From the NCBI RefSeq assembly GCF_000253055.1, contig NC_016070.1, positions 1,710,001 through 1,742,000 of the forward strand: 32,000 bases of DNA, read 5' to 3'. A model generated the notes under the pieces. It searched no databases. It was not told the DNA's origin and saw nothing but the letters and a program-made list of their open reading frames with translations. A program made the translations under genes and the position numbers. Source of the DNA: Thermoproteus tenax Kra 1. Lineage in GTDB: Archaea; Thermoproteota; Thermoprotei; Thermoproteales; Thermoproteaceae. This document shows, piece by piece, positions 4,009 to 25,660 of the stretch. Every line of letters starts with the position of its first letter. Positions within the stretch are counted from its first letter, which is position 1.

Positions 4009-4043
4009 GTTTTCTTAAAATGGTCGCCGAGATCTCCGAGGAA

Positions 4044-4054
4044 CTTTTAAATAG
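4044..4054 (+). promoter_or_regulatory. TATA-like box for purC
   Basis: A CTTTTAAATAG box is centred about 26 nt upstream of the ATG at 4075. Confidence 0.45.
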
Positions 4055-4065
4055 AGATTAAGTAC

Positions 4066-6618: not shown

Positions 6619-7435
6619 AGCCCAGAATGACGCCCAAGTCCTTGCCGGCGTTGCTCCATTCCCTCAGTTGTAGTTCGATGTAGGCCCTCTGCCTTTCCTC
6701 CCAATCCTCCAGCCACTGCCGAGTGTACCTTAGCCTTGCCCTCCAAACTTCGCGCTCCTCCTCTCTGTAGATTACTCTATTGTTCTCCTCGACTACGGTG
6801 GGCACTTTGACCACCTCTCTGTAGATATCCAGTAGCCCGTCCGCCACAGCCTGGAGGACTCTCGAGTAAAGCCTGTGTTCGTAAATCAACACTCTGTCCG
6901 CGATCAGCTCGATCTTGCGCTCGTAGGGCAACTCTAGGGCATAGATATCGCCTATATACACAGGCCATTGGTCCAGAATGGGCCCTCCGTCCACAGATTC
7001 ATCGACCAAGTGAACAGTTGGTCCAGTCACTCTGGCGCCGGATTTGTAGACCTCCATGTGAACCCTCAGTCCATACATCCCCTTGCCTCCAGCGAAGGGC
7101 AACAGCGAGGGGTGTATGTTGAGGACCCTCCATTTGAACTTCTCCAACACGGCGCGTCCCAGAATATAGTCATAGCCGGCGAGGGCCACATAGTCGACTC
7201 CGCTGTCCCTTAGAGCTTGCGCTATTTCCTCCTCCCTTTTAGGCCGCGGCACTCCCTTATGTTTTATGTAGAGCGACTCAATTCCGTATTCCTCTGCGAT
7301 CTTTCGGACTGGCGCATCCTGATCGCTGTAGATCAACAGGGCGATATCCACCCCCCTCAACACGCCGAGCCTTATGTGGTCCACTATAGCCTTAAAGTTC
7401 GTGCCTCGCCACGACGCCAAGATCCCCAGCCTCAT
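6602..7435 (-). CDS. purN: Phosphoribosylglycinamide formyltransferase PurN with a C-terminal extension of about 70 aa
   Basis: Shows GILASWRGTNF, NIHPSLLP, and GPTVHLVDESVDGGPIL. At 277 aa it is longer than the roughly 200 aa usual for PurN. Confidence 0.85.
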   Translation of the reverse strand: MRLGILASWRGTNFKAIVDHIRLGVLRGVDIALLIYSDQDAPVRKIAEEYGIESLYIKHKGVPRPKREEEIAQALRDSGVDYVALAGYDYILGRAVLEKFKWRVLNIHPSLLPFAGGKGMYGLRVHMEVYKSGARVTGPTVHLVDESVDGGPILDQWPVYIGDIYALELPYERKIELIADRVLIYEHRLYSRVLQAVADGLLDIYREVVKVPTVVEENNRVIYREEEREVWRARLRYTRQWLEDWEERQRAYIELQLREWSNAGKDLGVILGYGRLD

Positions 7436-8532
7436 GCCTTGACCGCCATGCGGTCTCTCTCCTTGAGCACAAGGCGGGGGAACCTGCGCCCGTACAACAT
7501 AGCCAAGACCCGTAGTGCCTTCTTCACCGCGTCGCTCACGTCGGCCCCCGTCACGTTCACGTGGCCCATTTTCCTCCTCGGCGTGGCCCGCGCCTTATGG
7601 TACCAGTACACTCTGCCTAATTTCTCAAGCTCAACCCAAGGTATCTCTTCTGCGTTGAGCCCCAGTATGTTCACCATGGCGACGCTAGGCGTATATCTAG
7701 GCAGTCTGAGGCCCAGGCCGAGGACGGCCCTAACGTGGGTCTCAAACTGGCTTACGTCTGTCTCGAGAGTCCAATGGCCTGTGTTGTGGACTCTGGGTGC
7801 TATCTCGTTGACCAATATTCTGCCGTCTCTAGCCTCGAAGAACTCCACGGCCAACACTCCAACGTATTTCCTCGCCTCGGCTATCTTCGCTACGACTTCC
7901 TCGGCCTCCTTCGGCGCTTGCGTTGGGGCAAAGCTCCAGACCAGTATGCCGTCGACGTAGTAGTTCTGGGCCGGCGGATAGTAGTAAATGTCGCCGTCTT
8001 CAGTTCTGGCGGCTACTATTGAGAACTCCCTCTTGATATCCACGAGCTCCTCGACTAATAGCTCACCTCTGAGCTGTCTGATGCGGCCGGCCATGCTGGG
8101 GTATACATACTGGCCCTTACCGTCGTAGCCGCCGGAGGGCTCCTTGACTACAGCTCTTCCGAACGTCTCTGCCATCTTCACTGCCTCTTCTCCTCCCTTA
8201 GCCACAGCCCATCTAGGAGTCGGGATCCCCAGCGAGTTGAGGAAGTTCCTCTCGTCTATTCTGCTCCTCTTTATAGACAAGTACTCAAGCGGCGGCCTCA
8301 GCTTTCCGCGCCTCTCTGCGTATTCGGCCACCCTAAAATCGACGTTCTCAAATTCGAAGGTCACATAGTCCGCCAGATCGACGGCCGCTAGAGGATCCTG
8401 GACTGCTCTGCCGGCCCTCAACGCGGGGGCCTCAGGGTTTTCATCGTAGACGTAAATCTCTGCTGGCAACCGGGCGCTCTCCCAGATCATCATGAGGGCT
8501 AGTTGACCTCCGCCTAAGATCAACAGGCGCAT
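7432..8532 (-). CDS. purK: N5-carboxyaminoimidazole ribonucleotide synthase PurK
   Basis: Shows MRLLILGGGQLALMM, an ATP-grasp core, and APRVHNTGHWT. Confidence 0.9.
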   Translation of the reverse strand: MRLLILGGGQLALMMIWESARLPAEIYVYDENPEAPALRAGRAVQDPLAAVDLADYVTFEFENVDFRVAEYAERRGKLRPPLEYLSIKRSRIDERNFLNSLGIPTPRWAVAKGGEEAVKMAETFGRAVVKEPSGGYDGKGQYVYPSMAGRIRQLRGELLVEELVDIKREFSIVAARTEDGDIYYYPPAQNYYVDGILVWSFAPTQAPKEAEEVVAKIAEARKYVGVLAVEFFEARDGRILVNEIAPRVHNTGHWTLETDVSQFETHVRAVLGLGLRLPRYTPSVAMVNILGLNAEEIPWVELEKLGRVYWYHKARATPRRKMGHVNVTGADVSDAVKKALRVLAMLYGRRFPRLVLKERDRMAVKA

Positions 8533-8620
8533 GGGCAGTTAAAGTCCTGAATTTAAAAATTTCTTTAAAACATATCGGCGTAGCAATAAGCCGAACAAGG
8601 GAAAATGTTTAACTATATGC

Positions 8621-9097
8621 TTAAAACCGCTTAATCAGGCTGCTCTTCAAGACCTCGTCGCGCACCTCTTCCATGAAGCGCCGCACCCTCTCTCTAATCT
8701 CAGGGTATTTTATGCCCAGTATCCTGAGCGCCAAATATGCGGCGTTAGCGGCGTTGCCTATCGCCACAGTGGCCACAGGCACCCCTCTGGGCATCTGCAC
8801 TATCGATAACAATGAGTCAAGGCCCCCCAAGTGCTTAGTGGGCACCGGCACGCCTATGACAGGGAGTACTGTGTGGGACGCCGTCATGCCGGGCAGATGG
8901 GCAGCGCCGCCGGCCCCAGCTATAATTACGTCGAACTCCCTCTCAGCATTTTTGGCGAACTCTGCCATGAAGTCCGGCGTTCTGTGTGCGCTTACTACTC
9001 TGGCCTCGTAGGATACGCCGAACTTCTCCAACACGTCCATGGCCTCCTTCATTACGTCGAGGTCGTGGACGGACCCCATAATTACGGCAACCCTCAT
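8621..9097 (-). CDS. purE: N5-CAIR mutase PurE
   Basis: Shows [27 protein letters not shown] and VIGVPV. I set the start at the ATG at 9097 because a TTTTAT box lies about 25 nt upstream. The 13 codons upstream in the tracked ORF are not PurE-like. Confidence 0.9.
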
Positions 9098-9231
9098 GGG
9101 ATGAAGACGTAGCGCGGATAAAAGGAGATCGCACAAAATAGAGGTTCTACCAATTTAAGCATTTAGTTAATATAGTTGCGGAAATAAGCCCGGCATCATC
9201 CATAAAATTTTAAATAGATATTGGAAATACC

Positions 9232-11334
9232 ATGGGCCTTAGGGACGACGAGTGGCAGCTCATAAGACTAAAGCTGGGGAGAGAGCCCACTAAAGCCGAG
9301 AGAGCCATATTCGAGTCTCACTGGTCTGAGCACTGCTCATACAAGTCTACTCGTTCTTGGCTCAAGCTCCTTCCGACGAAGGCGCCCTGGGTTCTGAGGG
9401 GCCCCGGCCTAGACGCCCCTCTGATAAAAATAACCGACCGCCTCCTTGTCACTTTCAAGATAGAGTCGCACAATCACCCGAGCGCGATAGATCCGTACAA
9501 CGGCGCAGCAACAGGTGTTGGCGGCATAATTAGAGATATACTTACCGTTAGGGCGAAGCCGGTCGCTCTTTTAGTGAACCTACACTTCGGACCCCTTGAC
9601 GATCAACATGCCAGGTGGATCGCGCGAAATGTGGTGAGAGGCATATCCGACTACGGGAACAGAGTCGGAGTGCCGGTAGTTGGCGGCGATACGATCTTCG
9701 ATCAATCGTTCACAAGAAACCCGATAGTCCTCGCCACCTGCGTGGGGGTCGTGGAGGAAGAAGCTGTGCCTAAGGGCGACATAGCGCCGGGCGACTTCCT
9801 CTTAGTGGCCGGCTCCTATACAGACCGTAGCGGGCTTGGAGGGTCGGCGTTTGCGAGCAAGGGCTTGAGCGGCGAGTCGGAGGAGGATCTAGGCGCGGTC
9901 CAGGTGGCAGATCCTCTGATGGGCAAGCTCATCATAGACTTAGTGCAGGAGGCGAGGGGTTGCGTCAAGTACATAAAGGACTTAGGAGGGGGAGGGCTGG
10001 CCACCGCCGCCGTGGAGTTGGCCGAACAGACGGGCCTCGGTCTAGAGTTGGACCTAGACAACGTGCACCTCGCCGATCCCACTATGGAGCCGGCTGAAAT
10101 ACTGGCGTCAGAGACGCAGGAGCGTATGGTGTTTGTAGTAGACGCGAAAGGCCTCGAGTGTCTCAAGAGGCTGGCCGATAAGCTCGATGTACCTATATCC
10201 GTCGTTGGACGCTTCACTGAAGCGCCCGGCGTAATGGTCAGGTGGAAGGGTCAGAAGGTGGCCGAGATACCGCCAGAGCTCTACAGAGCGCCCGACGTGA
10301 GGTGGCCCATGCGTGAGAACAAGAGGAGCGGGACTCTCGAAATCCCCTTTGTGCCCATTGAGAAGACAGCAGAGCTCGTCCTCTCCTCGCCCAATGTGGC
10401 AGACAAGGCCATAATCTATACTCAGTTTGACTCGACCGTCGGCGTTAGGACAGTGTTTAGACCAGGCGAGGCAGATGCCGCTGTAGTGAAACTGTTTGAG
10501 GAGGGCAACATAGGCGTGGCCATCAAGGGCGAGAGCAACCCGAGGTACTCATATCTCGACCCCTATCTAGGTGCAATCAATTCTTTCGTCAAAGCCTATA
10601 GGAACGTGGCCTCCGTTGGCGCAAAGCCATTGGCCGCCGTCGATTCGATAAACGTCGGCAATCCCGAGAAGCCGGATAGATATTGGCAGTTTGTTGAATC
10701 GGTAAGAGGAGTGGCCGATGCGGCGAGAAGCTTGGGAGTGCCAGTCGTAGGAGGGAAGGTGAGCCTATATAACGAGGACGAAGAAGGAAACCCTATAAGG
10801 CCTGTGGTCGCCGTAGTTATATTGGGCAAGCTAGACGACATCGCTCACGCCAGGAGGGCTATATGGCACGACGGAGACGTCGTAAGGATCCTCGGTACAA
10901 CGAGGCCAGAGTTGGGCGGCTCCGAGTACCTGTGGAGGGTATTCGGCGTTGTTGAGGGCGAACCGCCGATCGTGGACTTTAGACAAGAGCTACAGTTGGC
11001 GGAATTGCTCCCCTCCCTGGCCCCCAAGGTCCATGGCATCCACGACGTGGGGCTCGGCGGCGTGTTAGTCGCGCTTGCCAAAATGGCTAGAGCCAGCGGT
11101 GTGGGCGCCGAGATAGACCTATGCAAGATCCCCGCGACGGACGCCAGACTGGACTATCTGGCCTACAGTGAATCCAACGGGAGAGTCCTCATAGCGGCCG
11201 AAGAGGATGCGGACGTGCCCGGCGTGCCTTTAGGCAGAGTCTGGGGGGACAAGCTGGTGGTGAAATGCGGGGAGAACGTGCTATTCGCAATAAAGCTCGA
11301 GAGGCTGAGCGAGCTCATGTCGCTCAAACTATGA
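9232..11334 (+). CDS. purL: Phosphoribosylformylglycinamidine synthase II PurL
   Basis: A 700-aa protein showing [23 protein letters not shown] and a duplicated PurM-like domain architecture. Confidence 0.95.
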
Positions 11335-14087: not shown

Positions 14088-15065
14088 GTGAAGATAATTT
14101 TGGGAACGCCGGTGAGGACAGAGCCCAAGCCCTGGCTCTATTTCGAGGTAGAGTCTATAATGGTCAACGCCATGGAGGCCGACGAGAGGGCGAGGGCCAT
14201 CACCGGATTCGAGGGAGAGCTGTGGGTCGACTCGGGCGGCTACCAGGTACTCAAAAGAGGCCTCGAGGTATCGCCCTACGCCTTGGCGGAGAGATACAGA
14301 AGAATTGGTTGCGATGTTTGTCTCTCCCTCGACGTACCGCCGGCACCATCGGACGACCCCGCGACGGCCCAACGCAAGTTTGAAACGTCCTATAGGAACT
14401 GGAGGATCCTCAGATCGGAGCTCCCGGAGGCCCGCATAATGCCCGTGATACACGTGTATCCCGACGAGCGCCTCTTCGCGCGTTGGCTCAGCGCCTACGA
14501 AGATGCCGAGGAGCTCGCCATAGGGGGCGCGGTGCCCTACGTGTTGATAGCCAGAGGAGCTCCGTCGAACTCAAGGGAGCTCGCCATGAGGCTGTTCGCG
14601 ATGGCGAGGGAAAGGTTCGGAGGAAGACTGCATCTATTAGGTATGGGGAGCCCCTCCGTCTCTGCCACGCTGGAGATATTGGGGATAGACAGCGCCGACA
14701 GCGCCACGTGGAGACTGAAAGCTGCGTACGGGAAAGTAGTACTGCCTGGCGGAGGCGAGAGACACGTAACCAGCAGAGACGTTAATTTCGGCAGACGTAA
14801 GGCGAGGGAGGAGGAGCTGGAGGAGCTCTACGCCTATTTGAGATCCTCGGGCTTCCCGCTCCTGGACGGCTACGACGACTTCAAGTCGCGTTTGAGGGCC
14901 AGCTTCGAATACAGAGCGTTGGTCAACGCCTGGGTTATCTTGAGGAGCAGATCTCCTCCTCGCTCGGCTGTGTTCAAGAAGCTTTATTTGTGGGCCTTGG
15001 AATGGGCCCATGGCCCTAAGGCTCGCGAAGAGGCCGAGCAGAGTCAAGCTCAGAGGAAGGGCTGA
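14088..15065 (+). CDS. TGT-fold (tRNA-guanine transglycosylase / DpdA-like) protein, minimal form
   Basis: Shows WVDSGGYQV and LHLLGMGSP...GIDSADSATW, which match the two catalytic-Asp segments of TGT-family TIM barrels. It has only two Cys (CDVC), so I see no C-x-C-x2-C...H zinc site. At 325 aa there is no room for a PUA domain. It has a GTG start about 24 nt downstream of a TATAAAAA box. Confidence 0.65.
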   Translation: MKIILGTPVRTEPKPWLYFEVESIMVNAMEADERARAITGFEGELWVDSGGYQVLKRGLEVSPYALAERYRRIGCDVCLSLDVPPAPSDDPATAQRKFETSYRNWRILRSELPEARIMPVIHVYPDERLFARWLSAYEDAEELAIGGAVPYVLIARGAPSNSRELAMRLFAMARERFGGRLHLLGMGSPSVSATLEILGIDSADSATWRLKAAYGKVVLPGGGERHVTSRDVNFGRRKAREEELEELYAYLRSSGFPLLDGYDDFKSRLRASFEYRALVNAWVILRSRSPPRSAVFKKLYLWALEWAHGPKAREEAEQSQAQRKG

Positions 15066-17024: not shown

Positions 17025-17444
17025 ATGAAGTACAGGCTTATGGACGTATTGGCGTGTCCCTACGACAAGACCTTCCCTCTAAAGCTCATAGTCATCAAGA
17101 GGACGGAACACCCCGAGAGGCAGTATACCTGGCCCCGCAAGCCGTTCTGCGAGGAGTACTGTTCCTATCGCGACCTCAAGATAAAGGAACATCCCAAGCC
17201 CGAGACGTTGCCGTGCGAGGAGTGCCACAGATGGGAGATAGAGACCGGAGTAATGTACTGCCCGGCCTGCGGGAGATGGTATCCAATCATTGAGGAGATA
17301 CCCAGGATGTTGCCGGATGAGCTCAGGAACGAGAAGGAGGAGGTTGAGTTCCTGAAGTCCATCAAGGCTGAGCTTGAGAAGGTCGCCCCAGATCTCGCCA
17401 AGAAGATACTCTACGAGGGGAAGCCCTTCCGCCTTAAAGAGTAG
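17025..17444 (+). CDS. Trm112-like zinc-ribbon protein carrying an inserted second Cys cluster
   Basis: Has the N-terminal LMDVLACPYDK and the C-terminal YCPACGRWYPIIEEIPRMLP, which are the Trm112/DUF343 signature. A roughly 55-aa insert carries CEEYC and CEEC. Confidence 0.6.
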   Translation: MKYRLMDVLACPYDKTFPLKLIVIKRTEHPERQYTWPRKPFCEEYCSYRDLKIKEHPKPETLPCEECHRWEIETGVMYCPACGRWYPIIEEIPRMLPDELRNEKEEVEFLKSIKAELEKVAPDLAKKILYEGKPFRLKE

Positions 17445-18367
17445 TTGAGCTCGTTGAGAAGCGTTTTGAACAAGTCTTTTGGCAAGCGGGCGCCTGCCGC
17501 GCTCGGATGGCCTCCGGCAGGGACCCTATATCGCCGCGAGAAATCTCTGAGGAACTCGTTTAAGTCGAAGCCTGAGGAGCGGAGGCTCAATACGTATATA
17601 TCCTTCCTGGTCTCCAAAGCTATTCCGACAGGCACCTTGGCCGTGCCCTTCGCCAATGTTGCCGCGAGCCCCAACGGGCCTGGCGGATCTATCACATATG
17701 CCACGAGTCCCTCGCGTACGATATTGTTGGGTACCCACTGGGCTAGTCTCTCGTTCTGTCTACTCTGCTCTATGGCTCTAGCCAGGAGCTCTTCGTGGGA
17801 GGACGGAGGCTTGTTCTCAGAAAGATGTCTCACGATATCTCTCTTCAGATCGTGGAGCCGCCTGGCCCCCTCGAGGCCCTGAGAGAGGACGCCTGCCTCG
17901 AAGTATATAACGCGCTTATCCCAACGGCCTAGCGCCTCCTCGACCCAGTCGGTGTTATCAAGGTAATCGCCGATGGCTCCGTAGAGGGCCACGCGGTCGT
18001 ATGTCTCAGGCAGGAGGCCCTCGACATATCTAAAGGCTAGCTCCGAAGCGGCGGCGCCCAGTTTATGGAAAATCTCGACGTTCGGAGGAGGAGAAAAGCT
18101 CGATGGAGGCGGGTGGTGGTCGATGTAGACGATGCGTCCGCGGTACTCCTCGAAGGCCCTCAGTATCTCAGGCGCCGCCCACTCGTCTATAGCGACGTCT
18201 ACTATATACACATCGCCCTTGGCGTACTCCTTAAAGTCGCCGAGAAGGCCGGCCGGATGCGTGAAGTACACATCTATCTGGTCGTAGATGCCGGAATAGG
18301 CAGCCTTGAGCAGAGCTGCTGAACATACGCCGTCGGAGTCCCCGTGGGCTAATATAGTCATCCGCAT
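17411..18367 (-). CDS. DHH/DHHA1 family phosphoesterase (NrnA/RecJ-like)
   Basis: Shows ILAHGDSDGVCS, YIDHHPP and GGHPSAAGA. I set the start at the ATG at 18367 because the longer tracked ORF runs across two tRNA genes. A CTTATTAAG box lies about 24 nt upstream. Confidence 0.8.
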   Translation of the reverse strand: MRMTILAHGDSDGVCSAALLKAAYSGIYDQIDVYFTHPAGLLGDFKEYAKGDVYIVDVAIDEWAAPEILRAFEEYRGRIVYIDHHPPPSSFSPPPNVEIFHKLGAAASELAFRYVEGLLPETYDRVALYGAIGDYLDNTDWVEEALGRWDKRVIYFEAGVLSQGLEGARRLHDLKRDIVRHLSENKPPSSHEELLARAIEQSRQNERLAQWVPNNIVREGLVAYVIDPPGPLGLAATLAKGTAKVPVGIALETRKDIYVLSLRSSGFDLNEFLRDFSRRYRVPAGGHPSAAGARLPKDLFKTLLNELNYSLRRKGFPS

Positions 18368-18398
18368 ACAGCCGACTAGTTCTCCGCTTAATAAGCTA

Positions 18399-18492
18399 CG
18401 GGCCCGGTGGGATTCGAACCCACGACCTACGGCTCGCTCCGGCGGCAACGCCGTAGAAGGCCGCCGCTCTATCCATGCTGAGCTACGGGCCC
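18399..18492 (-). tRNA. tRNA-Arg (anticodon UCU) with an intron of about 19 nt at the canonical 37/38 position
   Basis: The reverse complement folds as GGGCCCG-UA-GCUC..GAGC-G-GCGGC-CUUCUA[CGGCGUUGCCGCCGGAGCG]A-GCCGU-AGGUC-GUGGG-UUCGAAU-CCCAC-CGGGCCC-G. No CCA is encoded. Confidence 0.8.
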
Positions 18493-18550
18493 CAGCGCTA
18501 TCTAAATGTGGCTTTTTATGGTTTCCGCCTTGTTGTGAAGAGAACGCAGG

Positions 18551-18670
18551 CGGGCCCGGTGGGATTCGAACCCACGACCTACGGGTTTCCACGGGCGCCA
18601 CGCGCCCTTAAGAGCCTCGGCGGACTTAGACTGGTTCCACCGCCGCTCTACCAGGCTGAGCTACGGGCCC
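18551..18670 (-). tRNA. tRNA-Lys (anticodon CUU) with two introns, one in the anticodon stem region and one at 37/38
   Basis: The acceptor, D and T arms are canonical. Removing about 24 nt (UGGAACCAGUCUAAGUCCGCCGAG) and about 22 nt (AGGGCGCGUGGCGCCCGUGGAA) restores the stem GCGGG/CCCGU and the loop CUCUUAA. The exact splice positions can slide by 1-2 nt. Confidence 0.7.
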
Positions 18671-19008: not shown

Positions 19009-19129
19009 GCGGCGGTAGTCTAGCCTGGTTGGGGCAATCGGCTAGCCCCCAGAGTAGGATGGCGGCCTTCCAAGCCGTTGGCGGGCAGACGCCCGGCGGA
19101 GATCCCGGGTTCGAATCCCGGCCGCCGCA
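19009..19129 (+). tRNA. tRNA-Gly (anticodon UCC) with two non-canonical introns (D-loop and variable region)
   Basis: Has acceptor GCGGCGG/CCGCCGC plus A, anticodon arm GCGGC-CUUCCAA-GCCGU and T arm CCGGG-UUCGAAU-CCCGG. About 25 extra nt sit in the D-loop and about 21 nt between the anticodon stem and the T stem. A TTAAAAA box lies about 25 nt upstream. Confidence 0.75.
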
Positions 19130-19433: not shown

Positions 19434-20201
19434 CTAGCGTGCCTCGCTCTGGCTCCGAGCTTTCGCCTCCTTGCGCGTTGAGATAAGCCATACCACTGTC
19501 TGAACCCAACCCGCCAATCTGCCCATCTTCTCCGATGCTTGGGCCCTCAGACAGTTCCTCCTGAGGGGGCACTCCTCGCACACGTAGCGAGCACACAGCT
19601 CTGCGCGGGGCGGAACTCCCTTAAGGCCCAGCTGGGGGGCATACCTTATGAAGTGTTTGTCCACAGGCACAGCAGTAGTATCCCCCGTGAACAAAAGGTA
19701 TAAGTCCGCCACCTTGGCCCCCACTCCTCTTATCCTCACTAAGTCCGACCTGGTTCTGGGCTTTGTCGAGAGGTACTCCCTCAGAGCCTCCGGCAACATC
19801 TTGAGTTGGTAGCTGTTGCCGAGTGCGGGGGCCGCCTCAGCTATATCGTTCAAGTCCTCAGAGCGCGAAAATAAAGCGCGCGTCCACTTGAGCACATTTG
19901 TGTGATAGCTTGTGTTCTGAGTCAAAAATGCTGCGACGAATATCAGCCCCTCATCGCCGGGCGATATAGAGAGCCCGACGCAACCTGCGTATCTCTCCAG
20001 AAGTCTTGTGACGCTCTCCTCGACGTCCTTGCTTAAATCGCCGATGTAGCGCCGTGGGTCGAACCATCTCCCTGAGAGGTGCGGATCATCGGCCACGTTA
20101 ACGCCCTTTCTGACGCCGAACCTCTTCACGTAGGTCTCGCCAGACTTCTCCACTAGTGTTAAAGTGAGACTGGGATAGAGCGTTAAGTCTAAACAGTTCA
20201 T
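19434..20201 (-). CDS. HhH-GPD superfamily DNA glycosylase-like protein (endonuclease III-like, with a C-terminal 4-Cys cluster)
   Basis: Shows FLTQNTSY and the HhH segment RIRGVGAKVADLYLL, followed by VPVDKHF (the EndoIII-like Lys and Asp positions). The C-terminal Cys cluster is C-x4-C-x2-C-x5-C (CARYVCEECPLRRNC). Confidence 0.7.
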   Translation of the reverse strand: MNCLDLTLYPSLTLTLVEKSGETYVKRFGVRKGVNVADDPHLSGRWFDPRRYIGDLSKDVEESVTRLLERYAGCVGLSISPGDEGLIFVAAFLTQNTSYHTNVLKWTRALFSRSEDLNDIAEAAPALGNSYQLKMLPEALREYLSTKPRTRSDLVRIRGVGAKVADLYLLFTGDTTAVPVDKHFIRYAPQLGLKGVPPRAELCARYVCEECPLRRNCLRAQASEKMGRLAGWVQTVVWLISTRKEAKARSQSEAR

Positions 20202-20965
20202 ATCATAGAAACAGGTACCCCCGAGGGGGTCACCGCTCTCGTCGGCTTAAGCCGCCGGGCCCTCATGAGCTTCACCACATGGGGGTAGAGGATAACGTAC
20301 TCGACGTCTATACATTCGGCGAGCTTCGGATGTATTCCGGCCAGAGCTCTCTCGAGCTCTCTGGCGCTTTCCTCCGTTGAGAAACCCAACATGGCGGCTG
20401 GGTATACATCTCTGCAAGGGGCCATTCCGGCATTGACCAAGTTACTGATAGCATCGAGCTGCCGACGAAAGTAGGCGCGGGGAGACATCGTTATCAGCTC
20501 GAACTCCTCCGGCGTCGCGCCCTTAATGGACACCCTCACGACGACGTTGGGAAAGGCGGCTAGCCGCCTTGCTAGCGTATCGTCGATCAAAATGCCGTTA
20601 GTCTCCACGACGAAGATATAGTCATGCGGTATCCCCTTAAGCACGCCTATCAGATGGTCGGCTGCTATCGTGGGCTCGCCCCCAGAGATCCTTAGCTGTG
20701 TGTAGCCCCTCGTCTTTGCGAGCTCCATTAACCTCTCGGCGACTTGTTCGGGCGCCAGAAAATCGCCAACGTCTAGCCTGAAGGACGAATTGCGCCACGC
20801 CCAGCACATGCCACACCTAAGATTGCAACCGACTATGTCGGCGGTCGCTATTCCGCCGTACCAACGGTCGAGCCTAAATCTGAAGTAGCGCCTTAGCGTC
20901 CTCTCTCCCTCCCTCTTCACAGCGAATTTCAACACCAGCTGCGTAAGAGCCTCTGGATCTATCAC
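20198..20965 (-). CDS. Radical SAM protein of unknown specificity
   Basis: Shows GCNLRCGMCW (the CxxxCxxC motif) and ISGGEPT. It has a GTG start about 24 nt downstream of an ATTTAAAA box. Its stop overlaps the start of the downstream glycosylase-like gene (ATGA). Confidence 0.8.
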   Translation of the reverse strand: MIDPEALTQLVLKFAVKREGERTLRRYFRFRLDRWYGGIATADIVGCNLRCGMCWAWRNSSFRLDVGDFLAPEQVAERLMELAKTRGYTQLRISGGEPTIAADHLIGVLKGIPHDYIFVVETNGILIDDTLARRLAAFPNVVVRVSIKGATPEEFELITMSPRAYFRRQLDAISNLVNAGMAPCRDVYPAAMLGFSTEESARELERALAGIHPKLAECIDVEYVILYPHVVKLMRARRLKPTRAVTPSGVPVSMI

Positions 20966-20984: not shown

Positions 20985-20992
20985 ATTTAAAA
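20985..20992 (-). promoter_or_regulatory. TATA-like box for the radical SAM/glycosylase operon
   Basis: The sequence TTTTAAAT on the minus strand is centred about 24 nt upstream of the GTG at 20965. Confidence 0.45.
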
Positions 20993-21061
20993 CCTCCTCG
21001 ACGTAGGCCCTTAGTTTTTCGTATTCCACAGTAATTATCGAGAATATTTAAGCGACTTACC

Positions 21062-21237
21062 TCAGAAATTGCTCCCCTTCACAACACCGGCCTTCCCCGG
21101 GGGAGCTCGGAGCGCGCGCCCGAGCCGCGCTGGGCAACCCAGGCGCGCGGGGGCCCGGCCGCGCCCGTGCGTTCGGGCTCGCCGGCTTCTACAGACGGCC
21201 GGATCCCCAAGGCCGGTGGGTTCATGCGAGAGAAATG
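21062..21237 (-). ncRNA. Candidate omega-RNA (reRNA) scaffold / right-end region of an IS200/IS605-type element
   Basis: It lies immediately 3' of the TnpB remnant on the same strand. My hand count gives about 79% G+C over 21071-21220. It is packed with short hairpins, for example GCTCGG/CCGAGC at 21104-21125 and CTGGG-CAA-CCCAG around 21130-21142. The only ORFs here are mirrored low-complexity frames. Confidence 0.35.
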
Positions 21238-21789
21238 TTACGAGGTTAAAAGTAAGATGGACGCCGAAAAAGCGGGTTGTTTTGTCTTCTGGAGTAGCTC
21301 CCAGTACCTCCTCTTTGCCCATATCAGCGGCACGTTGTCTCTGTGGTCTGAGAAGCCGCAGACAGGGCAACGCATAACGCGCCTTCTTTCCTCCTCCATC
21401 TCTGCTCCACAGCGGGGGCAGACAGTTGAGTACAGTCTTTCCTCAAGATACGGCAGTCCGTACCACTGCGCGAGCGCTTGTAGGCGCCTCCTCAGCTGTC
21501 CCAAACCGTCTAGAAAGTGTTTCCTCACTCCGCTCCCGTCGCCCTCCTTCAGTTCCCGATAACTCTCCTCCTCCATCGTGTCCACCACGATCGCGGCCTG
21601 ATGCTCCCTCGCCAGCTTAATTATCTCGCCAACGACGTCTTTAACGACGCCTCTTATCTTTCTATACCGCCGAGACTTGAGGTGGCGGGCTCTCTCCTCG
21701 AGACGTCTCCTTCTGGCGGGGTCCGCCTCCCTCGCGGCCCGCTCGTCGAGACGGCTTATCTCCTCGTGGAGTCTCCTCAGTTCTCTCAC
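21238..21789 (-). pseudogene. tnpB: IS200/IS605-family TnpB (OrfB) C-terminal fragment
   Basis: Has the zinc finger and RuvC-III region (CPRCG...RCPVCGFSDHRDNVPLIWAKRRY), preceded by an Arg-rich helical segment and AAIVVDTMEE. It is only 183 aa, against about 400 aa for intact TnpB. A further TnpB-like piece (VVKAVYVNGDNRFG) lies upstream in another frame, around 21850-21960. Confidence 0.65.
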
Positions 21790-21988: not shown

Positions 21989-24900
21989 TCACCTCTTGAG
22001 AACCTCCTCGATAAACTCCTCGAATAGCTCGTCCAACACGGCTCTATAGTCCCTCCTGCCGTTCTCCACATCGTCCATGAACCTCTCAATGAGCCTCGTT
22101 CTCTCCTCGCTCACTAACTTCCCGAAATTGCTCTTGAGGTATTGGTAGACCTCTATGCCCCTCTTGGTCGGTATCATGAACTTGCGGCGCCCCCTCACCA
22201 CGACGTATCCCCTTTTTGAGAGCACCTCCAGGATCTTTGCGTAGGTGCTTGGTCTGCCGATACCCCTCTCCTTCATGAGCCGCAACACGTCGGCCTGCGA
22301 CAGGAGCTCTACGTGCCTTTTGGCATACGTTATTTTTATCGGCGACTCGCCCTCCCGCAGAGGCCTTGCCTCTTCAACAGTCCGATACATCCTCAAGAAG
22401 CCCTCCTCCTTTATTTCGACGACCCTCTCTACCTCAGCCTTATATCCGCCGGCCTCTACCTCATATTTCTCCACTCTGACCAACGCCTCGCGCATCTGGC
22501 TTGACATAAACCTCCTGAATATGAGCTCGTATGCTGCATAGTGGTTTCTCGTCAGCCTTATAGTCGGCTGTATTACGCCAGCCGCCACCAGTCCCCGTAG
22601 CTCCTCGGCGTCGATGGGCCTCGTGGGCCTTATCGCCTCGTGGGCGCCCTCCTCGCCGGTCGCCCACGGCCTGGCCTTGAAGAGATCGGCGCCGAACCTC
22701 TTGGATATATACTCCCTCGCTATACCGATGCCTGTGGCAGAGACTCTGGTGCTGTCCGTGCGGTGGTAAGTGATGAAGCCGCTTTCAAAGAGGTCCTGGG
22801 CGATGGCCATGGCCTGCTCAGCAGTTATTCCCAACTTATTCACGGCATCCCTCATGTATTCGTCCGTGGTATAGGGCGGTGGCGGCTGGAGAACCACCTC
22901 TCTGCCCTCAAGCCTCTTTATTCTGACGCGCCCCTCGCTCTTAAGAGCCTTGTAGGAGTCCTCTGGCAACGTCAGTCTAATTGAGCCGTCCTCCAGCTCG
23001 ATCGTTACATCGAACTTCCTCTCCGCCCTAGAGCTCTGATAACGTTCAACGATCCAACCGAGGACAGGGCTCTGTACTCTTCCCGCCGAGAGAAATGCGA
23101 GCCCGTGAGCCTCTTGAACTCTTCTGCTCAGCCCAAATCCTATCCACCTATCCTCAACTCTTCTGACCATCTGGGCCGCCACCATGGGCAAATTGACGTC
23201 CCTAGGCGAGGAGAGGGCATTGACTATGGCTCTCCGGGTCACCTCGTGGAACTCAATCCTCTTGATTGAGCCGACGTAAGGTCTCAACGCTAGATATACG
23301 TCGTACGCTATCTTCTCTCCCTCTGAATCTGGGTCGGTGCCCAACAACACAAGGTCGACCTCAGAGGCCAAGTTCCTAAGAGTTGAGATTATATCGAGGG
23401 GCTGGCAATTCTCCGGTACCTCCGTGTCGTCAACATACGAAGCCCCTGGACACTTATAGATTCTATTATAGACCGGAATATAGCCATCCTCGGTCTTGAA
23501 CACAGCGTAATCCTCTGGGCTATATATCTCCGAGAGGGTGCGCCCCACGGCTCTGAGGACCCTCTCTTTCTCGCTCGGCTCGATCTTCGCCAAACTGGTC
23601 GGAAGTTCGTAGATGTGCCCCATCGTCGCTATTACTGTGAGCATCATATCGCCCGTAGATACCTCGTAGGCCGGCACGCCGCCCACTATAAGCATATTGG
23701 GTCTTCCAAAGAACGACGCAATAGTCCTGGCCTTGGTGGGGGATTCGACCACCAACAACACGCTCTTCATGATATCTCTCGCCGAAAGCTCCTCCGGTTT
23801 GAAGCTGCCCGAAAGTATTCGTCTGATAGTTTCGCGGTCTGAGTCTACCTCCCTCAATATCTTATCTAGATCTGTCTCGGCTAAGTCGTAGAACTTGACT
23901 TCGTCGAACCTTAGCTCCAGCTCCCTCCTGAGCGCGTGCAAGACCTTCTCGTCGTCGACTAGAATAACGCTGAGACCTCTCGAGAGCCCACCTGCGTAGA
24001 GCCTTGACGTTCTGCCACTCCCTTGTATATATGTCGTCACATCGGGCAGTAACACGTAGAGCTGTCCATCTATGTAAGTCAGCTTCACCTCAGTGGAGGT
24101 CTCTATAGCTCTTTTTACATCGTCCCTAGAGAGTATCAAGCCGACGAACTCAACGGCCGACTTGACCACGTTTAATAGATACTCCTCGAAGGAGTTCTTA
24201 GGCCCCTCGGTCAGCACCTTCTCCAGACCTGCAGTATACGGCGCAATCCGCCTTAGTTGTGCAATCAATCTATCGGCCTTGAACTTCAACTCTTGAGGCA
24301 AGACTCCTCTCACGTTGTAGAGAAACGCAAGATAGGCAGGGGCCGAGAACTCGTCCAGCTTTACTCTGAACTTGAACTTGGGTATCCCCACGAAGATCAC
24401 GTATCTGATCACGTGCGGCATATCTATCCCTCTCACTAGCGCCGAGCGGGCAGAGGCGAGGCCCACCAATGCGTCCAATTCTCCTCTCTCGAAGGCCTCT
24501 AACACCTTGCGGCGGGGCCGGAAGAAGTGCTCCGCCTTGATCCCCTCTCCCTTGAGATATTCGACTAGTTCTCTGCCCAGATCTTTATCTTGTACATAGA
24601 TTATGCCGCCAGATCCGAGCCTTTTGACGAGGGCGGCCACCTGCGCCCTCGGATCCTCGGAGAGCTTTGCGTACACGTCGTATACGTTCCTAAGCCCCTC
24701 CGCCCTCCCGCCTACATCGAAGCCCAATAATTCTCTAAATAGGAGTAACCTAGTGGTTCTCCGCGCCTTCGCCAACGCCCCCGAGGCTATAAAGACGCCC
24801 AACTTGAGCCTGGCCTTCAGCCTTCTGAGCTCCTCCCTTTTCCTTTTTATCTCAACGTCGCTCTCCTCGAGCCCCTTTTCATCCCCGCCTAACATCTGCC

Positions 24901-25660
24901 TCGCCCTTTTCTTGTTCAGCTCGATGATATCGAGAGCCAGATTGAGCGCCTCATCGGTAGCCCCCAGAAGCCTCAACAACCTCTCTATGTTCTTGCTCGT
25001 AGCCCTCAAGACGCTGTCTACGTCGTCTGTGGCTATGAAGATGAACTTATACTTTGCCAATACGTCGAAATATTTGGGCAAAAAGGCCGACGTGATAATC
25101 AATATATCGAAATCCCCTTCCTCTATCCTCTTAAGGGCCTCTTCCCTCTCTTGTTCCCTCAACATTGTGTTATAGCTGATTATACGGCCGCTGTAATTAG
25201 CCCTTGCCGAGTAGTCCAACAGCTTTTTGTATGCCTGATAGGCCAGCGCTGACGTGGGGAAGACCAACAAGACCTTGCCCCCTCTGGCCATATACAACGA
25301 TGACACTAAAAGGAAGGTAGTTTTGCCAGAGCCCGTCGGGGCCACTACGGCGAAGCTCTTTCCGGCCGCAAGGCGCTTGGCCCACAGCCTCTGCGCGCCC
25401 CACATGCGGAAACCCACAACTTTCTCAAACAATACGTTCAACTCCTCATATCTCCTTAAGACCTCGTCGAGAGTAGCCAACTCCTTGAGGGAACCCTCGC
25501 TCTTAAGCGCCTGAATAACGCTCTTGAGGTTCTCCAGTTTCAGAGCTCTGGGCAGGCACTCGGAGCAGGGCAAGCCCTGGGCCAGCCTGGACGAGTCCAC
25601 GGCCCCGCCACAGTTGGGGCAACTATGAAGATATATCGCGCGTATAGTCTTGAAGTCCAC
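21989..25660 (-). CDS. rgy: Reverse gyrase
   Basis: A 1223-aa protein. It has an N-terminal zinc finger (CPNCGG...CSEC), the helicase Walker A APTGSGKTT, a Toprim segment LLVVESPTKA, and a type IA active-site region GFITYHRTDST. It has a GTG start. Confidence 0.95.
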   Translation of the reverse strand: MDFKTIRAIYLHSCPNCGGAVDSSRLAQGLPCSECLPRALKLENLKSVIQALKSEGSLKELATLDEVLRRYEELNVLFEKVVGFRMWGAQRLWAKRLAAGKSFAVVAPTGSGKTTFLLVSSLYMARGGKVLLVFPTSALAYQAYKKLLDYSARANYSGRIISYNTMLREQEREEALKRIEEGDFDILIITSAFLPKYFDVLAKYKFIFIATDDVDSVLRATSKNIERLLRLLGATDEALNLALDIIELNKKRARQMLGGDEKGLEESDVEIKRKREELRRLKARLKLGVFIASGALAKARRTTRLLLFRELLGFDVGGRAEGLRNVYDVYAKLSEDPRAQVAALVKRLGSGGIIYVQDKDLGRELVEYLKGEGIKAEHFFRPRRKVLEAFERGELDALVGLASARSALVRGIDMPHVIRYVIFVGIPKFKFRVKLDEFSAPAYLAFLYNVRGVLPQELKFKADRLIAQLRRIAPYTAGLEKVLTEGPKNSFEEYLLNVVKSAVEFVGLILSRDDVKRAIETSTEVKLTYIDGQLYVLLPDVTTYIQGSGRTSRLYAGGLSRGLSVILVDDEKVLHALRRELELRFDEVKFYDLAETDLDKILREVDSDRETIRRILSGSFKPEELSARDIMKSVLLVVESPTKARTIASFFGRPNMLIVGGVPAYEVSTGDMMLTVIATMGHIYELPTSLAKIEPSEKERVLRAVGRTLSEIYSPEDYAVFKTEDGYIPVYNRIYKCPGASYVDDTEVPENCQPLDIISTLRNLASEVDLVLLGTDPDSEGEKIAYDVYLALRPYVGSIKRIEFHEVTRRAIVNALSSPRDVNLPMVAAQMVRRVEDRWIGFGLSRRVQEAHGLAFLSAGRVQSPVLGWIVERYQSSRAERKFDVTIELEDGSIRLTLPEDSYKALKSEGRVRIKRLEGREVVLQPPPPYTTDEYMRDAVNKLGITAEQAMAIAQDLFESGFITYHRTDSTRVSATGIGIAREYISKRFGADLFKARPWATGEEGAHEAIRPTRPIDAEELRGLVAAGVIQPTIRLTRNHYAAYELIFRRFMSSQMREALVRVEKYEVEAGGYKAEVERVVEIKEEGFLRMYRTVEEARPLREGESPIKITYAKRHVELLSQADVLRLMKERGIGRPSTYAKILEVLSKRGYVVVRGRRKFMIPTKRGIEVYQYLKSNFGKLVSEERTRLIERFMDDVENGRRDYRAVLDELFEEFIEEVLKR

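Follow-up and report, generated by a model that had tools for sequence, protein, structure and literature searches.

Spore photoproduct lyase (SPL) provides the precedent for attack by a 5'-dA radical on a DNA lesion that has been flipped out. When the thymidine-hypermodification system of phage M6 was reported, only two radical-SAM enzymes were known to act on DNA, SPL and gp53 of that phage, the latter clustered with an HhH-fold protein (PMC8989533). In the phage system, aGPT-Pplase, which has an HhH glycosylase-like fold, and the radical-SAM isomerase gp53 work on DNA bases (PMC8989533). In bacteria, a gene association of a SplB-like radical-SAM protein, DUF4130 and a uracil-DNA glycosylase has been predicted by Aravind and co-workers to act on DNA bases (PMC3765255). 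Archaea have an obligate complex, the archaeosine synthase ArcS-RaSEA, in which a base-handling enzyme is joined by a small radical-SAM 'lyase' subunit (PMC11298593). Here we analyze an archaeal gene pair that encodes a radical-SAM protein and a DNA glycosylase of the HhH-GPD superfamily. We found no description of a radical-SAM/HhH-GPD pair in the searchable full-text literature, and the pairing appears to be undescribed.

The pair lies in a stretch of 32,000 nucleotides of Thermoproteus tenax Kra 1 (NC_016070.1, positions 1,710,001 to 1,742,000), hereafter the window, in which all positions are numbered. Both genes are on the minus strand. The radical-SAM gene (20198..20965) encodes 255 aa from a GTG start, and the HhH-GPD superfamily gene (19434..20201), hereafter the glycosylase gene, encodes 255 aa from an ATG start. 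No spacer separates them: the first gene's stop codon runs over the start codon of the second in an ATGA of four shared bases (20198..20201, minus strand). Both lengths and the overlap had been given in an earlier reading of the letters without database searches (the sequence-only reading), and the ORF list and the minus-strand sequence bear them out; the motifs quoted there (GCNLRCGMCW, ISGGEPT, GVGAKVAD, VPVDKHF and C-x4-C-x2-C-x5-C) are present at the expected places in the translations. The start codons of both ORFs agree with the N-termini of homologues (MIDPE... and MNCL.LTLYPS). On inspection of the sequence, the sole promoter-like element that both genes can use is a TATA-like box, TTTTAAAT, at 20985..20992 (minus strand), approximately 20 nt 5' of the GTG start, which agrees with the earlier claim of one box for the pair. 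Such a TATA-to-start spacing fits a leaderless archaeal transcript. From the ATGA overlap and the single TATA-like box, we predict that the two genes are co-transcribed and translationally coupled. The flanks are also as first described: on one side are two intron-containing tRNA genes (18399-18492 and 18551-18670) and a sub-threshold tRNA-like match (19009-19128), and on the other is a truncated TnpB/Cas12f-like ORF (21238-21789). A Trm112 homologue is found near the pair, and a divergent TGT-like gene, with an orthologue in an apparent Pyrodictium operon, lies 4.4 kb away.

The radical-SAM protein matches the Pfam model PF04055 (Radical_SAM) with 67.9 bits (E 1.6e-18), above the gathering cut-off of 29.5. 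Its CX3CX2C motif, CNLRCGMC, is the predicted [4Fe-4S] cluster site (residues 47-54; 20804..20827, minus strand), and its 'GGE' SAM-binding motif is SGGEPT (residues 94-99; 20669..20686, minus strand). Alignment of 25 homologues showed C47, C51 and C54 to be invariant, together with S94, G95, G96, E97 and P98, and revealed no further conserved Cys outside CX3CX2C. An AF2 model (pLDDT 92.5) matched radical-SAM cores in the PDB, and the partial TIM-barrel fold, the two motifs and the Pfam score agree in placing the protein in the superfamily. The family carries a conserved N-terminal extension of approximately 45 aa (RFRxxRWYGGIAT), and the protein ends after the core, without a C-terminal auxiliary Fe-S domain. 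As judged from its sequence, it is a minimal single-cluster enzyme with no auxiliary domain and about the size of PFL-AE.

We compared this protein with radical-SAM families of known substrate. All NCBIfam matches, among the 25 listed, were far under their cut-offs, including those for MoaA (best score 47.1 bits against 325.25), the SPASM/twitch maturases (ScmF, 49.3 against 400), QueE (TIGR03365, 22.2 against 206.1), PFL-AE (TIGR02493, 21.6 against 231.75) and prokaryotic viperin (NF038283, 26.7 against 180). Structure and context agreed with these scores: PDB QueE aligned with a TMq of 0.45, the auxiliary-cluster domain and extra conserved Cys of a SPASM/twitch maturase are missing, and the gene conserved beside it encodes an HhH protein in place of the glycyl-radical enzyme that PFL-AE would have as partner. 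A PADLOC match to pVip (30 bits) is weak and generic and falls over the cluster-binding region. For SPL/SplB we obtained no match in Pfam (E<=0.1) or among the 25 NCBIfam matches listed, and the resemblance of the model to the SPL structure 4fhe (TMq 0.56) is generic. The best whole-length structural match was PFL-AE 3cb8 (TMq 0.61, TMt 0.63). Sequence and structure searches thus give generic cores and nothing that likens the protein specifically to SPL or to another enzyme acting on DNA. Whether the protein belongs to a family with a known substrate was a question raised at the outset, and it fits none.

The glycosylase carries an HhH, Lys and Asp segment, SDLVRIRGVGAKVADLYLLFTGDTTAVPVDKH (19653..19748, minus strand), in which we predict K163 to be the Schiff-base nucleophile and D181 to be the catalytic Asp. 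This segment aligns to Endonuclease III (EndoIII; PDB 9nzc, E 3e-5). Downstream is CARYVCEECPLRRNC (19551..19595, minus strand), a C203-x4-C208-x2-C211-x5-C217 loop and predicted [4Fe-4S] site whose position in the alignment coincides with that of the EndoIII Cys loop. The Nth-type set of catalytic Lys, Asp and C-terminal four-Cys loop is therefore complete, with a predicted cluster site. Among 97 homologues, K163 and D181 are identical in all, and the four loop Cys are kept in 96-97. The tripeptide SYQ (residues 130-132; 19806..19814, minus strand), which aligns near the EndoIII 'GLYRN' and which we take, from EndoIII and OGG1 structures, to be the DNA-inserting wedge loop, is also well kept (S in 95, Y in 92 and Q in 86 of the 97).

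Fold and pocket point to OGG1. The AF2 model (pLDDT 96.4) found OGG1 as its best Foldseek match (TM ~0.65, probability 1.0), and the KVAD, PVDxH and GWxQxxx[Y/F/W] motifs align to human OGG1. By profile-to-PDB alignment, GWVQTVVW (19488..19511, minus strand) is the counterpart of AGWAQAVLF in the human enzyme, which we take to hold Q315 and F319 of the 8-oxoG pocket; Q234 and an aromatic residue at position 238 are each found in 96/97 homologues. The model and the alignment thus show an OGG1-type two-domain fold and equivalents of pocket residues, presumably those of K249, D268, Q315 and F319. The extra N-terminal domain seen in the sequence-only reading is real: it is part of the high-confidence model and of the whole-protein match to the two-domain OGG1 fold. 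The EndoIII-like label given there survives for the Cys loop and fails for the fold and pocket motifs, which are nearer to OGG1. Because the Lys, Asp, four Cys and Gln/aromatic residues are kept on an OGG1 fold, sequence and model predict an active glycosylase. That its substrate is of the guanine type is a guess from two aligned pocket residues, at approximately 15% overall identity.

HhH-GPD proteins have a two-lobed helical fold in which a helix-hairpin-helix precedes a Gly/Pro-rich loop and a catalytic Asp some 18-20 residues beyond the Lys position. GVGAKVAD...VPVDKH and the two-lobed OGG1-type match identify the protein as an HhH-GPD member by motif and fold. It is outside the current sequence model: the Pfam HhH-GPD model gave no match at E<=0.1, and the hits obtained were sub-threshold ones to HHH, WhiB and HRDC. 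We had asked whether it might be a plain Nth orthologue, and it is not, with 28.3 bits against a TIGR01083 cut-off of 211.7, over residues 139-193 only, in addition to the missing Pfam match. The OGG family model likewise does not take it in (TIGR00588, 24.5 bits against 397.85). A search of 1.84 billion representatives at E<=1e-30 yielded 134 clusters, and the glycosylase forms a small archaeal family of its own. Both proteins of the pair are basic (median pI 9.0 and 9.2).

The pair is widely conserved. A scan with the glycosylase profile showed the radical-SAM gene adjacent in 30/49 GTDB species-level loci. An independent scan with the radical-SAM profile gave 80 metagenome loci, of which 69 had flank enough for the adjacency test; the glycosylase gene was adjacent in 59 of these. 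Of the 135 non-redundant loci that were fetched, 93 carry the pair. Adjacent pairs occur in Thermoproteaceae, Thermofilaceae, Desulfurococcaceae, Fervidicoccaceae, Bathyarchaeia, Methanomethylicia and Aigarchaeota/Caldarchaeales, so that adjacency is not confined to this genome: it holds, in several arrangements, for at least seven archaeal lineages of family to class rank. Both co-directional orders are found, each with start/stop overlaps, as well as genes on opposite strands. The Pyrobaculum aerophilum pair has the same 4-bp overlap, according to the gene calls, in a completely different neighbourhood; at Pyrobaculum-type loci the tblastn matches of both genes abut, consistent with an ATGA-type junction. 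In the reverse order, the genes overlap by 13 bp in Thermogladius, 1 bp in Methanomethylicia and 4 bp in Bathyarchaeia. The earlier view of the two genes as a single unit is upheld by this adjacency across lineages, in both orders and with overlaps. Since the pair is conserved in 93/135 loci from many lineages, chance is excluded as the source of the pairing. The genes are apart in approximately a quarter of loci (Ignisphaera, 'Sulfolobales' MAGs, Pyrodictium and Infirmifilum). An alignment of homologues showed that solo glycosylases keep every catalytic residue; hence, where the radical-SAM gene is not adjacent, the glycosylase may work alone.

All-against-all clustering of neighbours in the 135 loci revealed no third universal partner, and the radical-SAM/glycosylase partner is the sole widely shared neighbour. 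One apparent shared cluster consisted merely of ABC-transporter ATPases. Dcd, HAD, MFS, DUF488 and SplB-like genes are each confined to particular lineages; for DUF488, no characterised function was found in the literature searched. In Aigarchaeota/Caldarchaeales, the pair is flanked by a SplB/DUF1848-like radical-SAM gene and a dCTP-deaminase-like gene. In Pyrobaculum it has ribosomal-protein genes on one side and a class-I (Tyr/Trp-type) tRNA synthetase gene on the other, with eIF6 and SRP54-family genes nearby. This fixed core-genome position shows that the accessory-element setting first described for the window does not hold in general. Two observations on these genes speak against a DNA target: the MFS transporter, HAD hydrolase and dCTP-deaminase-like neighbours, which recur, point toward nucleotide or small-molecule metabolism instead, and with the translation genes that adjoin the pair in Pyrobaculum and at several further loci, RNA would be as fitting a target.

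A distant clade of the glycosylase domain is fused to a TFIIB cyclin repeat. We considered the long members (532-564 aa) as possible Rosetta-stone fusions of the two proteins; they carry the TFIIB repeat, not a radical-SAM domain. One such fused member lies in a locus (L136) that also holds a BrxC/D-like ATPase gene, two TGT-like genes and one for a YaaA-like DUF6884 protein (PMC11701544), a gene set of the kind looked for in Dpd-type 7-deazaguanine DNA modification systems, where a DpdA (TGT-like) gene is clustered with an ATPase gene and a DpdC/YaaA-like gene. Members of the main family have a divergent TGT-like gene in their vicinity only in this window and in one Pyrodictium locus. A TGT-like link, seen in three loci, is not general. 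Relatives of either gene were absent from IMG/VR viral contigs, the glycosylase model had no significant match among viral protein structures, and PADLOC had no defence-family match to the glycosylase besides its weak generic pVip match to the radical-SAM protein. We therefore rejected a viral or defence origin for the pair.

In our preferred reading, to which we give a probability of roughly 0.45, the proteins act as a complex on a guanine-type lesion or modification in DNA. The complex itself would follow from the gene linkage. The glycosylase subunit would use its HhH and Fe-S loop to bind duplex DNA, and would flip a guanine-type damaged or modified base. The small partial barrel of the radical-SAM subunit is expected to be open, as in enzymes with macromolecular substrates, and its 5'-deoxyadenosyl radical would attack the flipped nucleotide at the base or the sugar link, converting or uncoupling something beyond the reach of hydrolytic chemistry. 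The Lys/Asp site might afterwards excise the base, nick the strand by beta-elimination and pass the site to base-excision repair. A macromolecular substrate for the radical-SAM enzyme is suggested because PFL-AE is its best structural match (SPL reaches 0.56) and it has no conserved Cys beyond CX3CX2C. That the two proteins belong to a single conserved system which works on DNA in Thermoproteota (TACK archaea) we regard as close to an even chance, and somewhat short of it. The more specific proposal, a radical-SAM-dependent DNA base-processing machine in which an OGG1-like Fe-S glycosylase is bound to a radical-SAM enzyme, as a new class beside SPL and gp53, is tentative and on balance doubtful. 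In such a machine the radical step would be one of which ordinary base-excision repair is incapable: perhaps the opening of a sugar-to-base cross-link such as 8,5'-cyclopurine, a class of lesion that forms preferentially at low oxygen, or alternatively a step on 7-deazaguanine bases in DNA, linked to the nearby TGT-like genes.

DNA is not the only substrate that the pair might serve. The proteins could belong to a small-molecule pathway for the salvage or remodelling of a modified purine nucleotide or nucleoside, such as a 7-deazaguanine compound. In it, the HhH protein would work as an N-glycosidase on nucleotides and free a base for the radical-SAM enzyme to trim or convert; the precursor would be brought in by a transporter, and the product would be inserted in nucleic acid by a TGT-type enzyme. 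An MFS gene directly follows the pair in 11 Aigarchaeota-type loci, and in Pyrodictium one overlaps the glycosylase gene in an apparent PadR, TGT-like, MFS and HhH operon, whose TGT-like gene is orthologous to that in the window. A HAD hydrolase gene is directly upstream of the glycosylase gene in six Methanomethylicia, Bathyarchaeia and Culexarchaeum loci (with a few-base overlap in three), and a dCTP-deaminase-like gene adjoins the pair in 13. The chemistry has parallels in eukaryotic Qng1/DUF2419, a glycosylase-fold enzyme that acts on queuosine monophosphate, and in bacterial QueL, a radical-SAM queuine lyase. However, every metabolic neighbour is confined to one or two lineages, whereas the pair is general, and the TGT-like link amounts to three loci. 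The glycosylase also keeps features suited to duplex DNA, namely the HhH, a glycosylase/lyase-type Lys, SYQ near the EndoIII wedge loop and an EndoIII-type Fe-S loop, and one clade carries the fused TFIIB repeat, which binds DNA/TBP. We favor DNA over a small-molecule target because of this fusion, the SplB-like and dCTP-deaminase-like flanks and the basic pI of both proteins, and consider the small-molecule pathway unlikely.

Three further explanations differ in what the radical-SAM enzyme would act on, if anything shared. It might be an activase or maturase that equips the glycosylase with a radical, a post-translational modification or a cluster, leaving the glycosylase alone to work on DNA. 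The nearest whole-length structure, PFL-AE 3cb8, has a protein loop as its substrate, the enzyme is very small and without an auxiliary domain, and strict one-to-one linkage with overlaps suits a dedicated protein substrate; against this, the PFL-AE family score is 21.6 bits where 231.75 is required, and on inspection the glycosylase, small, helical and unlike known glycyl-radical enzymes, shows no glycyl-radical-type motif. That solo glycosylases keep all conserved residues neither demands nor rules out a maturase encoded elsewhere. We judge this explanation improbable. The same holds, a shade more firmly, for an RNA target, by which the pair would modify or repair tRNA or rRNA in the style of ArcS-RaSEA, a nucleic-acid-binding subunit presenting the base to an obligately bound radical-SAM enzyme. 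On tRNA, ArcS-RaSEA offers a documented case of a base-handling enzyme in complex with a radical-SAM lyase (PMC11298593). The pair has the ribosomal-protein, eIF6, SRP54-family and synthetase genes as neighbours in Pyrobaculum, tRNA genes and the Trm112 homologue beside it in this window, and, at other loci, nearby genes for aminoacyl-tRNA synthetases or the CCA-adding enzyme. Because these translation neighbours differ by lineage and no genes are commoner in genomes at large, the association is weak, and across lineages no neighbour is shared but the partner. Lys/beta-elimination chemistry also suits 2'-deoxyribose over ribose, and we know of no HhH-GPD enzyme that acts on RNA. Finally, the functions could be unrelated, with genes merely packed together and a linkage that is historical. 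Archaeal genomes are compact with common gene overlaps, and the two genes are apart in Ignisphaera, 'Sulfolobales' MAGs, Pyrodictium and Infirmifilum. Yet adjacency outlasts gene-order inversion and strand changes, and holds between lineages whose glycosylases are just 25-35% identical, while all other neighbours turn over; we think this very improbable indeed.

If a DNA-directed complex is correct, the radical-SAM protein would be a third DNA-acting radical-SAM enzyme, a chromosomal one tied to a base-excision enzyme, in hot-spring and vent archaea, with new chemistry for DNA repair or modification. Should the 8,5'-cyclopurine or 7-deazaguanine version be true, it would reveal a thermophile-associated repair or epigenetic pathway across TACK archaea, in which nucleotide-excision repair is, to our knowledge, still poorly understood. 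If instead one of the rival explanations holds, the pair would still mark an unknown route of nucleotide salvage or RNA modification. Mechanism aside, the analysis defines a new radical-SAM family and a new, sharply delimited HhH-GPD family with an OGG1 fold and a predicted Fe-S loop, and the two-gene system is small enough for in vitro reconstitution.

Among known glycosylases, eukaryotic and clostridial OGG1 is the closest in fold, with a TM of ~0.65 over the whole protein including the N-terminal domain and with the KVAD Lys, the PVDxH Asp and the C-terminal GWxQxxx-aromatic pocket helix all aligned. It differs in its low identity (approximately 15%; 24.5 bits against the OGG cut-off of 397.85) and in having a single Cys where the glycosylase described here has a four-Cys loop; the latter also has a shorter N-terminal domain and a linked radical-SAM gene. 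With EndoIII/Nth, MutY and MIG, the protein shares the HhH-Lys-Asp segment (9nzc, E 3e-5) and the C-terminal four-Cys loop, which is spaced C-x6-C-x2-C-x5-C in EndoIII and C-x4-C-x2-C-x5-C here. Two features set it apart from EndoIII/Nth, the additional N-terminal domain and the OGG1-type pocket helix, and it belongs to a separate small family.

The radical-SAM protein shares superfamily and partial-barrel core with SPL/SplB, but is approximately 85 aa shorter than the SPL chain, and a genuinely SplB/DUF1848-like gene is present as a separate neighbour in Aigarchaeota loci. PFL-AE (244-245 aa), likewise a minimal single-cluster partial barrel, gives the best reciprocal TM (0.61/0.63); the RFRxxRWYGGIAT extension is specific to the family described here, and no glycyl-radical enzyme was seen among the conserved neighbours of the pair. 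Of the two-component systems, the bacterial association (PMC3765255) likewise links a radical-SAM enzyme to a DNA glycosylase by neighbourhood, but joins SplB-like and uracil-DNA glycosylase proteins, whereas the archaeal pair joins a non-SPL minimal radical-SAM protein to an HhH-GPD protein; DUF4130 was not identified among the neighbour families checked around the pair. The phage M6 system depends in addition on a PLP enzyme and a 5-hmU DNA kinase, and its gp53 is SPL-like. By comparison, the present pair is absent from viral contigs, and its HhH protein keeps the excision-type Lys and Asp. ArcS-RaSEA is euryarchaeal, with a TGT-paralogue partner and a tRNA substrate, where the pair described here has an HhH partner. 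Compared by description, it offers a model for how the pair could work.

On the minus strand of the window, a radical-SAM (rSAM) gene with a GTG start (20198..20965, 255 aa) lies directly upstream of a gene for a glycosylase of the HhH-GPD superfamily with an ATG start (19434..20201, also 255 aa). The ORF list and the raw sequence confirmed both reading frames, as well as the four bases that they have in common in an ATGA overlap (20198-20201, minus strand). The sequence-only reading had assigned a single TATA-like box to the pair, and this agrees with what we found: a TTTTAAAT box is located on the minus strand at 20985-20992, about 20 nt 5' of the GTG start, and the window sequence leaves no space for a second promoter between the two genes. 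The motifs quoted in that reading were likewise each in place: the upstream protein has CNLRCGMC and SGGEPT, the downstream one GVGAKVAD, VPVDKH and C-x4-C-x2-C-x5-C. A scan of the window for bacterial-type promoters and terminators returned nothing meaningful, as expected for an archaeal host. We conclude that both genes share one transcript and are coupled in translation.

The upstream protein falls within the radical-SAM superfamily (PF04055, 67.9 bits in Pfam). No family of known substrate reached its NCBIfam cut-off: the best scores among the curated families were 49 bits for ScmF, 47 for MoaA, 27 for viperin, 22 for QueE and 22 for PFL-AE, all far under cut-offs of 180-650. An alignment of 25 homologues revealed a common N-terminal signature, RFRxxRWYGGIATxDxxGCNLRCxxCWxW, together with SGGEPT, ETNG and RxSxKG. 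Because no Cys outside the cluster motif was conserved in this alignment, we regard the protein as a single-cluster enzyme without an auxiliary domain. Its AF2 model (pLDDT 92.5) matched generic radical-SAM cores only; the best reciprocal structural match was a 244-aa PFL activating enzyme (TM 0.61/0.63), and SPL gave a TM of 0.56.

The Pfam HhH-GPD model does not pick up the downstream protein, which is no plain Nth (28 bits versus a cut-off of 211.7) and also falls short of the OGG family cut-off (24.5 bits versus 397.85). The best PDB matches of its AF2 model (pLDDT 96.4, pTM 0.92) were mouse, human and clostridial OGG1 (TM ~0.65, 15% identity), and the match spans the whole protein, including the N-terminal domain. 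Alignment of the family profile to PDB sequences yielded three correspondences with human OGG1: KVAD with TKVAD, the segment containing the catalytic Lys; PVDxH with PVDVH, the segment containing the catalytic Asp; and the C-terminal aGWvQTvaY with AGWAQAVLF, whose Gln and Phe line the 8-oxoG pocket. A four-Cys loop similar to the Fe-S cluster loop of EndoIII occupies the place of a single Cys in the aligned OGG1 segment. The earlier description of this protein as EndoIII-like therefore holds for its Fe-S loop but not for its fold, which is that of OGG1, in a family of its own. Among 97 non-identical homologues, K163 and D181 were invariant, the four Cys were kept in 96-97, Q234 was kept in 96, and position 238 was aromatic in 96. 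Such conservation is what one would expect of an active bifunctional glycosylase/lyase that contains an Fe-S cluster. An exhaustive search of 1.84 billion representatives with the family profile gave 134 clusters at E<=1e-30, which makes this a small family with sharp limits.

The pairing extends well beyond T. tenax. In P. aerophilum, the two genes have the identical 4-bp overlap in a wholly different neighbourhood, which comprises ribosomal-protein genes, eIF6, an SRP54-family gene and a class-I (Tyr/Trp-type) tRNA synthetase. An rSAM orthologue (~50% identical) comes after a gene for a 304-305-aa protein without a Pfam match in three further cases, with overlaps of 13 bp in Thermogladius, 1 bp in a Methanomethylicia MAG and 4 bp in a Bathyarchaeia contig. 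Direct comparison with the window glycosylase, made for two of the three proteins, identified both as homologues, one with 28% identity over its full length (E 1e-30) and the other with 31% over the C-terminal two-thirds (E 2e-18); hence, the pair occurs in both gene orders. When we scanned one genome per GTDB species with the glycosylase profile, the rSAM gene was adjacent in 30 of 49 loci, and 7 of the other 19 stop at a contig edge. The rSAM gene precedes the HhH gene in Thermoproteaceae, and the HhH gene comes first in Thermofilaceae, Desulfurococcaceae/Staphylothermus, Bathyarchaeia, Methanomethylicia, Aigarchaeota/Caldarchaeales/Geocrenenecus and one Nitrososphaerales MAG. The genes are on opposite strands in one Thermofilaceae MAG. 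A reciprocal scan of metagenome contigs with the rSAM profile, from which the best 80 loci were retained, placed a glycosylase gene next to the rSAM gene in 59; 10 lacked one with 900 bp or more of sequence on each side, and the other 11 had too little flank. The two genes are divergent and 50 bp apart in a Fervidicoccaceae MAG.

All-against-all clustering of ORFs from 135 loci revealed the partner gene as the sole neighbour common across lineages. The two genes are non-adjacent in 'Sulfolobales' MAGs, Pyrodictium, Infirmifilum and Ignisphaera, the last of which has both genes lying apart, and solo glycosylases retain all catalytic residues. An adjacency that outlasts order inversion and strand change while the rest of the neighbourhood turns over argues for a functional link. 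We regard this as strong evidence, and the link is probably physical as well. The sequence-only reading had taken the pair for a functionally joined, undescribed module, as opposed to an adjacency in one genome, an rSAM enzyme of known substrate or a plain Nth, and this proposal stood up as far as its tests could be run. Its description of the pair as accessory fails outside the T. tenax genome. The pair was absent from viral contigs, defence families gave no match beyond a weak generic radical-SAM one, and viral protein structures gave no significant match; the pair is neither mobile nor defensive.

The flanks in the window are as originally described, with tRNA genes on one side and a truncated TnpB/Cas12f-like ORF on the other. 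ARAGORN found an intron-containing Arg-TCT tRNA gene at 18399-18492 and missed a second intron-containing tRNA gene at 18551-18670; a sub-threshold tRNA-like match lies at 19009-19128 (plus strand). A 396-aa ORF listed at 17411-18601 reads across the tRNA genes, and the true gene in this region is probably a DHH/DHHA1 phosphoesterase with a start near 18373. Beside the tRNA genes is also a 139-aa Trm112 homologue (17025-17444, plus strand), whose Trm112 match is split by an inserted region. The TnpB/Cas12f-like ORF (183 aa, within 21060-21789, minus strand) has the TNB zinc-ribbon as its sole remaining domain. It is followed, just upstream of the pair's promoter, by a very GC-rich stretch of ~180 nt (21060-21237) that may be what is left of an IS right end or of an omega-RNA. 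Reverse gyrase (21989-25660, minus strand; zf_Rg, DEAD, Toprim and Topoisom_bac domains), ~1 kb past the IS remnant, marks the host as a hyperthermophile. A purine-biosynthesis cluster with PurD-, PurM-, FolD-, PurK- and PurL-type genes occupies the window's left third (1-11334).

Fusions and neighbour genes provide clues to function. Three distant family members (P0352, P0357 and P0358; 532-564 aa) are fusions in which a TFIIB cyclin repeat lies C-terminal to the glycosylase domain. At one locus (L136:1-7736, the P0358 locus), the TFIIB-fused gene comes after genes for a TGT-like protein and a BrxC/D-like AAA ATPase, and this single locus also encodes a second TGT-like protein, wHTH proteins and a YaaA-like DUF6884 protein. 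YaaA belongs to one family with DpdC of the 7-deazaguanine DNA-modification system. DUF6884 has been related by the Pfam authors to the DNA-binding protein YaaA (PMC11701544). The locus resembles a 7-deazaguanine DNA-modification island of the Dpd type in an uncultured archaeon. A divergent TGT-like gene is also present in the window (14088-15065, plus strand, 325 aa), 4.4 kb from the pair; its product is under the Pfam TGT cut-off and scores 48 bits against a TgtA cut-off of 350. A 42% identical orthologue is encoded in a Pyrodictium MAG (L033:1775-2866), in an apparent operon with the order PadR, divergent TGT-like, MFS, HhH homologue. We found no additional TGT-like links beyond the window, L033 and L136. 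The window protein may be a base-exchange enzyme tied to the pair's system, or its proximity may be due to chance, since it is seen in the window and L033 only.

Other neighbours recur within particular lineages. The extended Aigarchaeota/Caldarchaeales-type cluster (L040, L042, L046, L051, L090, L092, L093, L096 and L142) consists of a divergent SplB/DUF1848-like radical-SAM gene followed by Dcd-like (dCTP deaminase), HhH, rSAM, MFS and DUF488 genes. The 'Sulfolobales' MAGs (L019-L025) have a Dcd-like gene convergent with the solo HhH gene, 1-8 bp apart in four of five loci. A 178-aa DUF488 gene follows the rSAM gene by 3-35 bp in nine loci without a glycosylase neighbour (L099, L108, L114, L115, L118, L120, L121, L128 and L130), several of them on contigs too short upstream to exclude one; the DUF488 protein had no solved-structure match. 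Six loci from Methanomethylicia, Bathyarchaeia and Culexarchaeum (L005, L006, L029, L034, L038 and L073) carry a HAD-family hydrolase gene directly upstream of the HhH gene, with an overlap of a few bases in three. Both families of the pair are basic, with median pI values of 9.0 and 9.2.

Our leading reading, to which as a whole mechanism we assign a probability of about 45%, is that the rSAM enzyme and the glycosylase form a complex that processes a guanine-type base in DNA. The two proteins would assemble on DNA, and the glycosylase would flip a guanine-type base, as the OGG1-like Gln/aromatic pocket suggests. The substrate would be duplex DNA, as indicated by an SYQ stretch that aligns close to the EndoIII wedge loop, the HhH and the Fe-S loop. 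The rSAM subunit, whose small partial barrel is like those of enzymes with macromolecular substrates, would then abstract a hydrogen from the flipped nucleotide, after which the Lys/Asp site would carry out base excision and strand nicking. This scheme is a reasoned guess.

The same neighbourhoods can be read in other ways. Small-molecule salvage by the pair would fit its neighbours of the MFS, HAD, Dcd and TGT-like types and has an analogy in Qng1/QueL, but we consider it unlikely. The resemblance to PFL-AE would suit an rSAM protein that acts as a protein-directed activase, which we find improbable. An RNA target, to which the translation-gene neighbours and an analogy with ArcS-RaSEA (PMC11298593) would point, seems to us slightly less probable again. 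Coincidental linkage would have to account for the retention of the pair in both gene orders, and we give it very little credence.

We consider the pair of fairly high interest, since it is small, is open to experiment and may lead to new radical chemistry on DNA in hyperthermophilic archaea. A full-text literature search found no description of the rSAM-glycosylase pair, and we rate its novelty as new families within two known superfamilies plus a new conserved association. Two precedents are comparable. A bacterial gene association combines an SplB-like radical-SAM enzyme with DUF4130 and UDG (PMC3765255), and in the thymidine-hypermodification cluster of phage M6 the radical-SAM isomerase gp53, which is SPL-like, acts together with the HhH-fold aGPT-Pplase (PMC8989533). 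According to the phage M6 paper, no radical-SAM enzyme other than SPL had been linked to DNA before gp53. Both resemble the archaeal pair in joining a radical-SAM enzyme to a glycosylase or glycosylase-fold protein, but the families differ. Unlike the SplB-like and gp53 partners, the rSAM protein of the pair is not SPL-like; its HhH protein is OGG1-like and keeps the excision-type residues; and its distribution is archaeal and chromosomal, whereas the precedents are bacterial and phage-borne.
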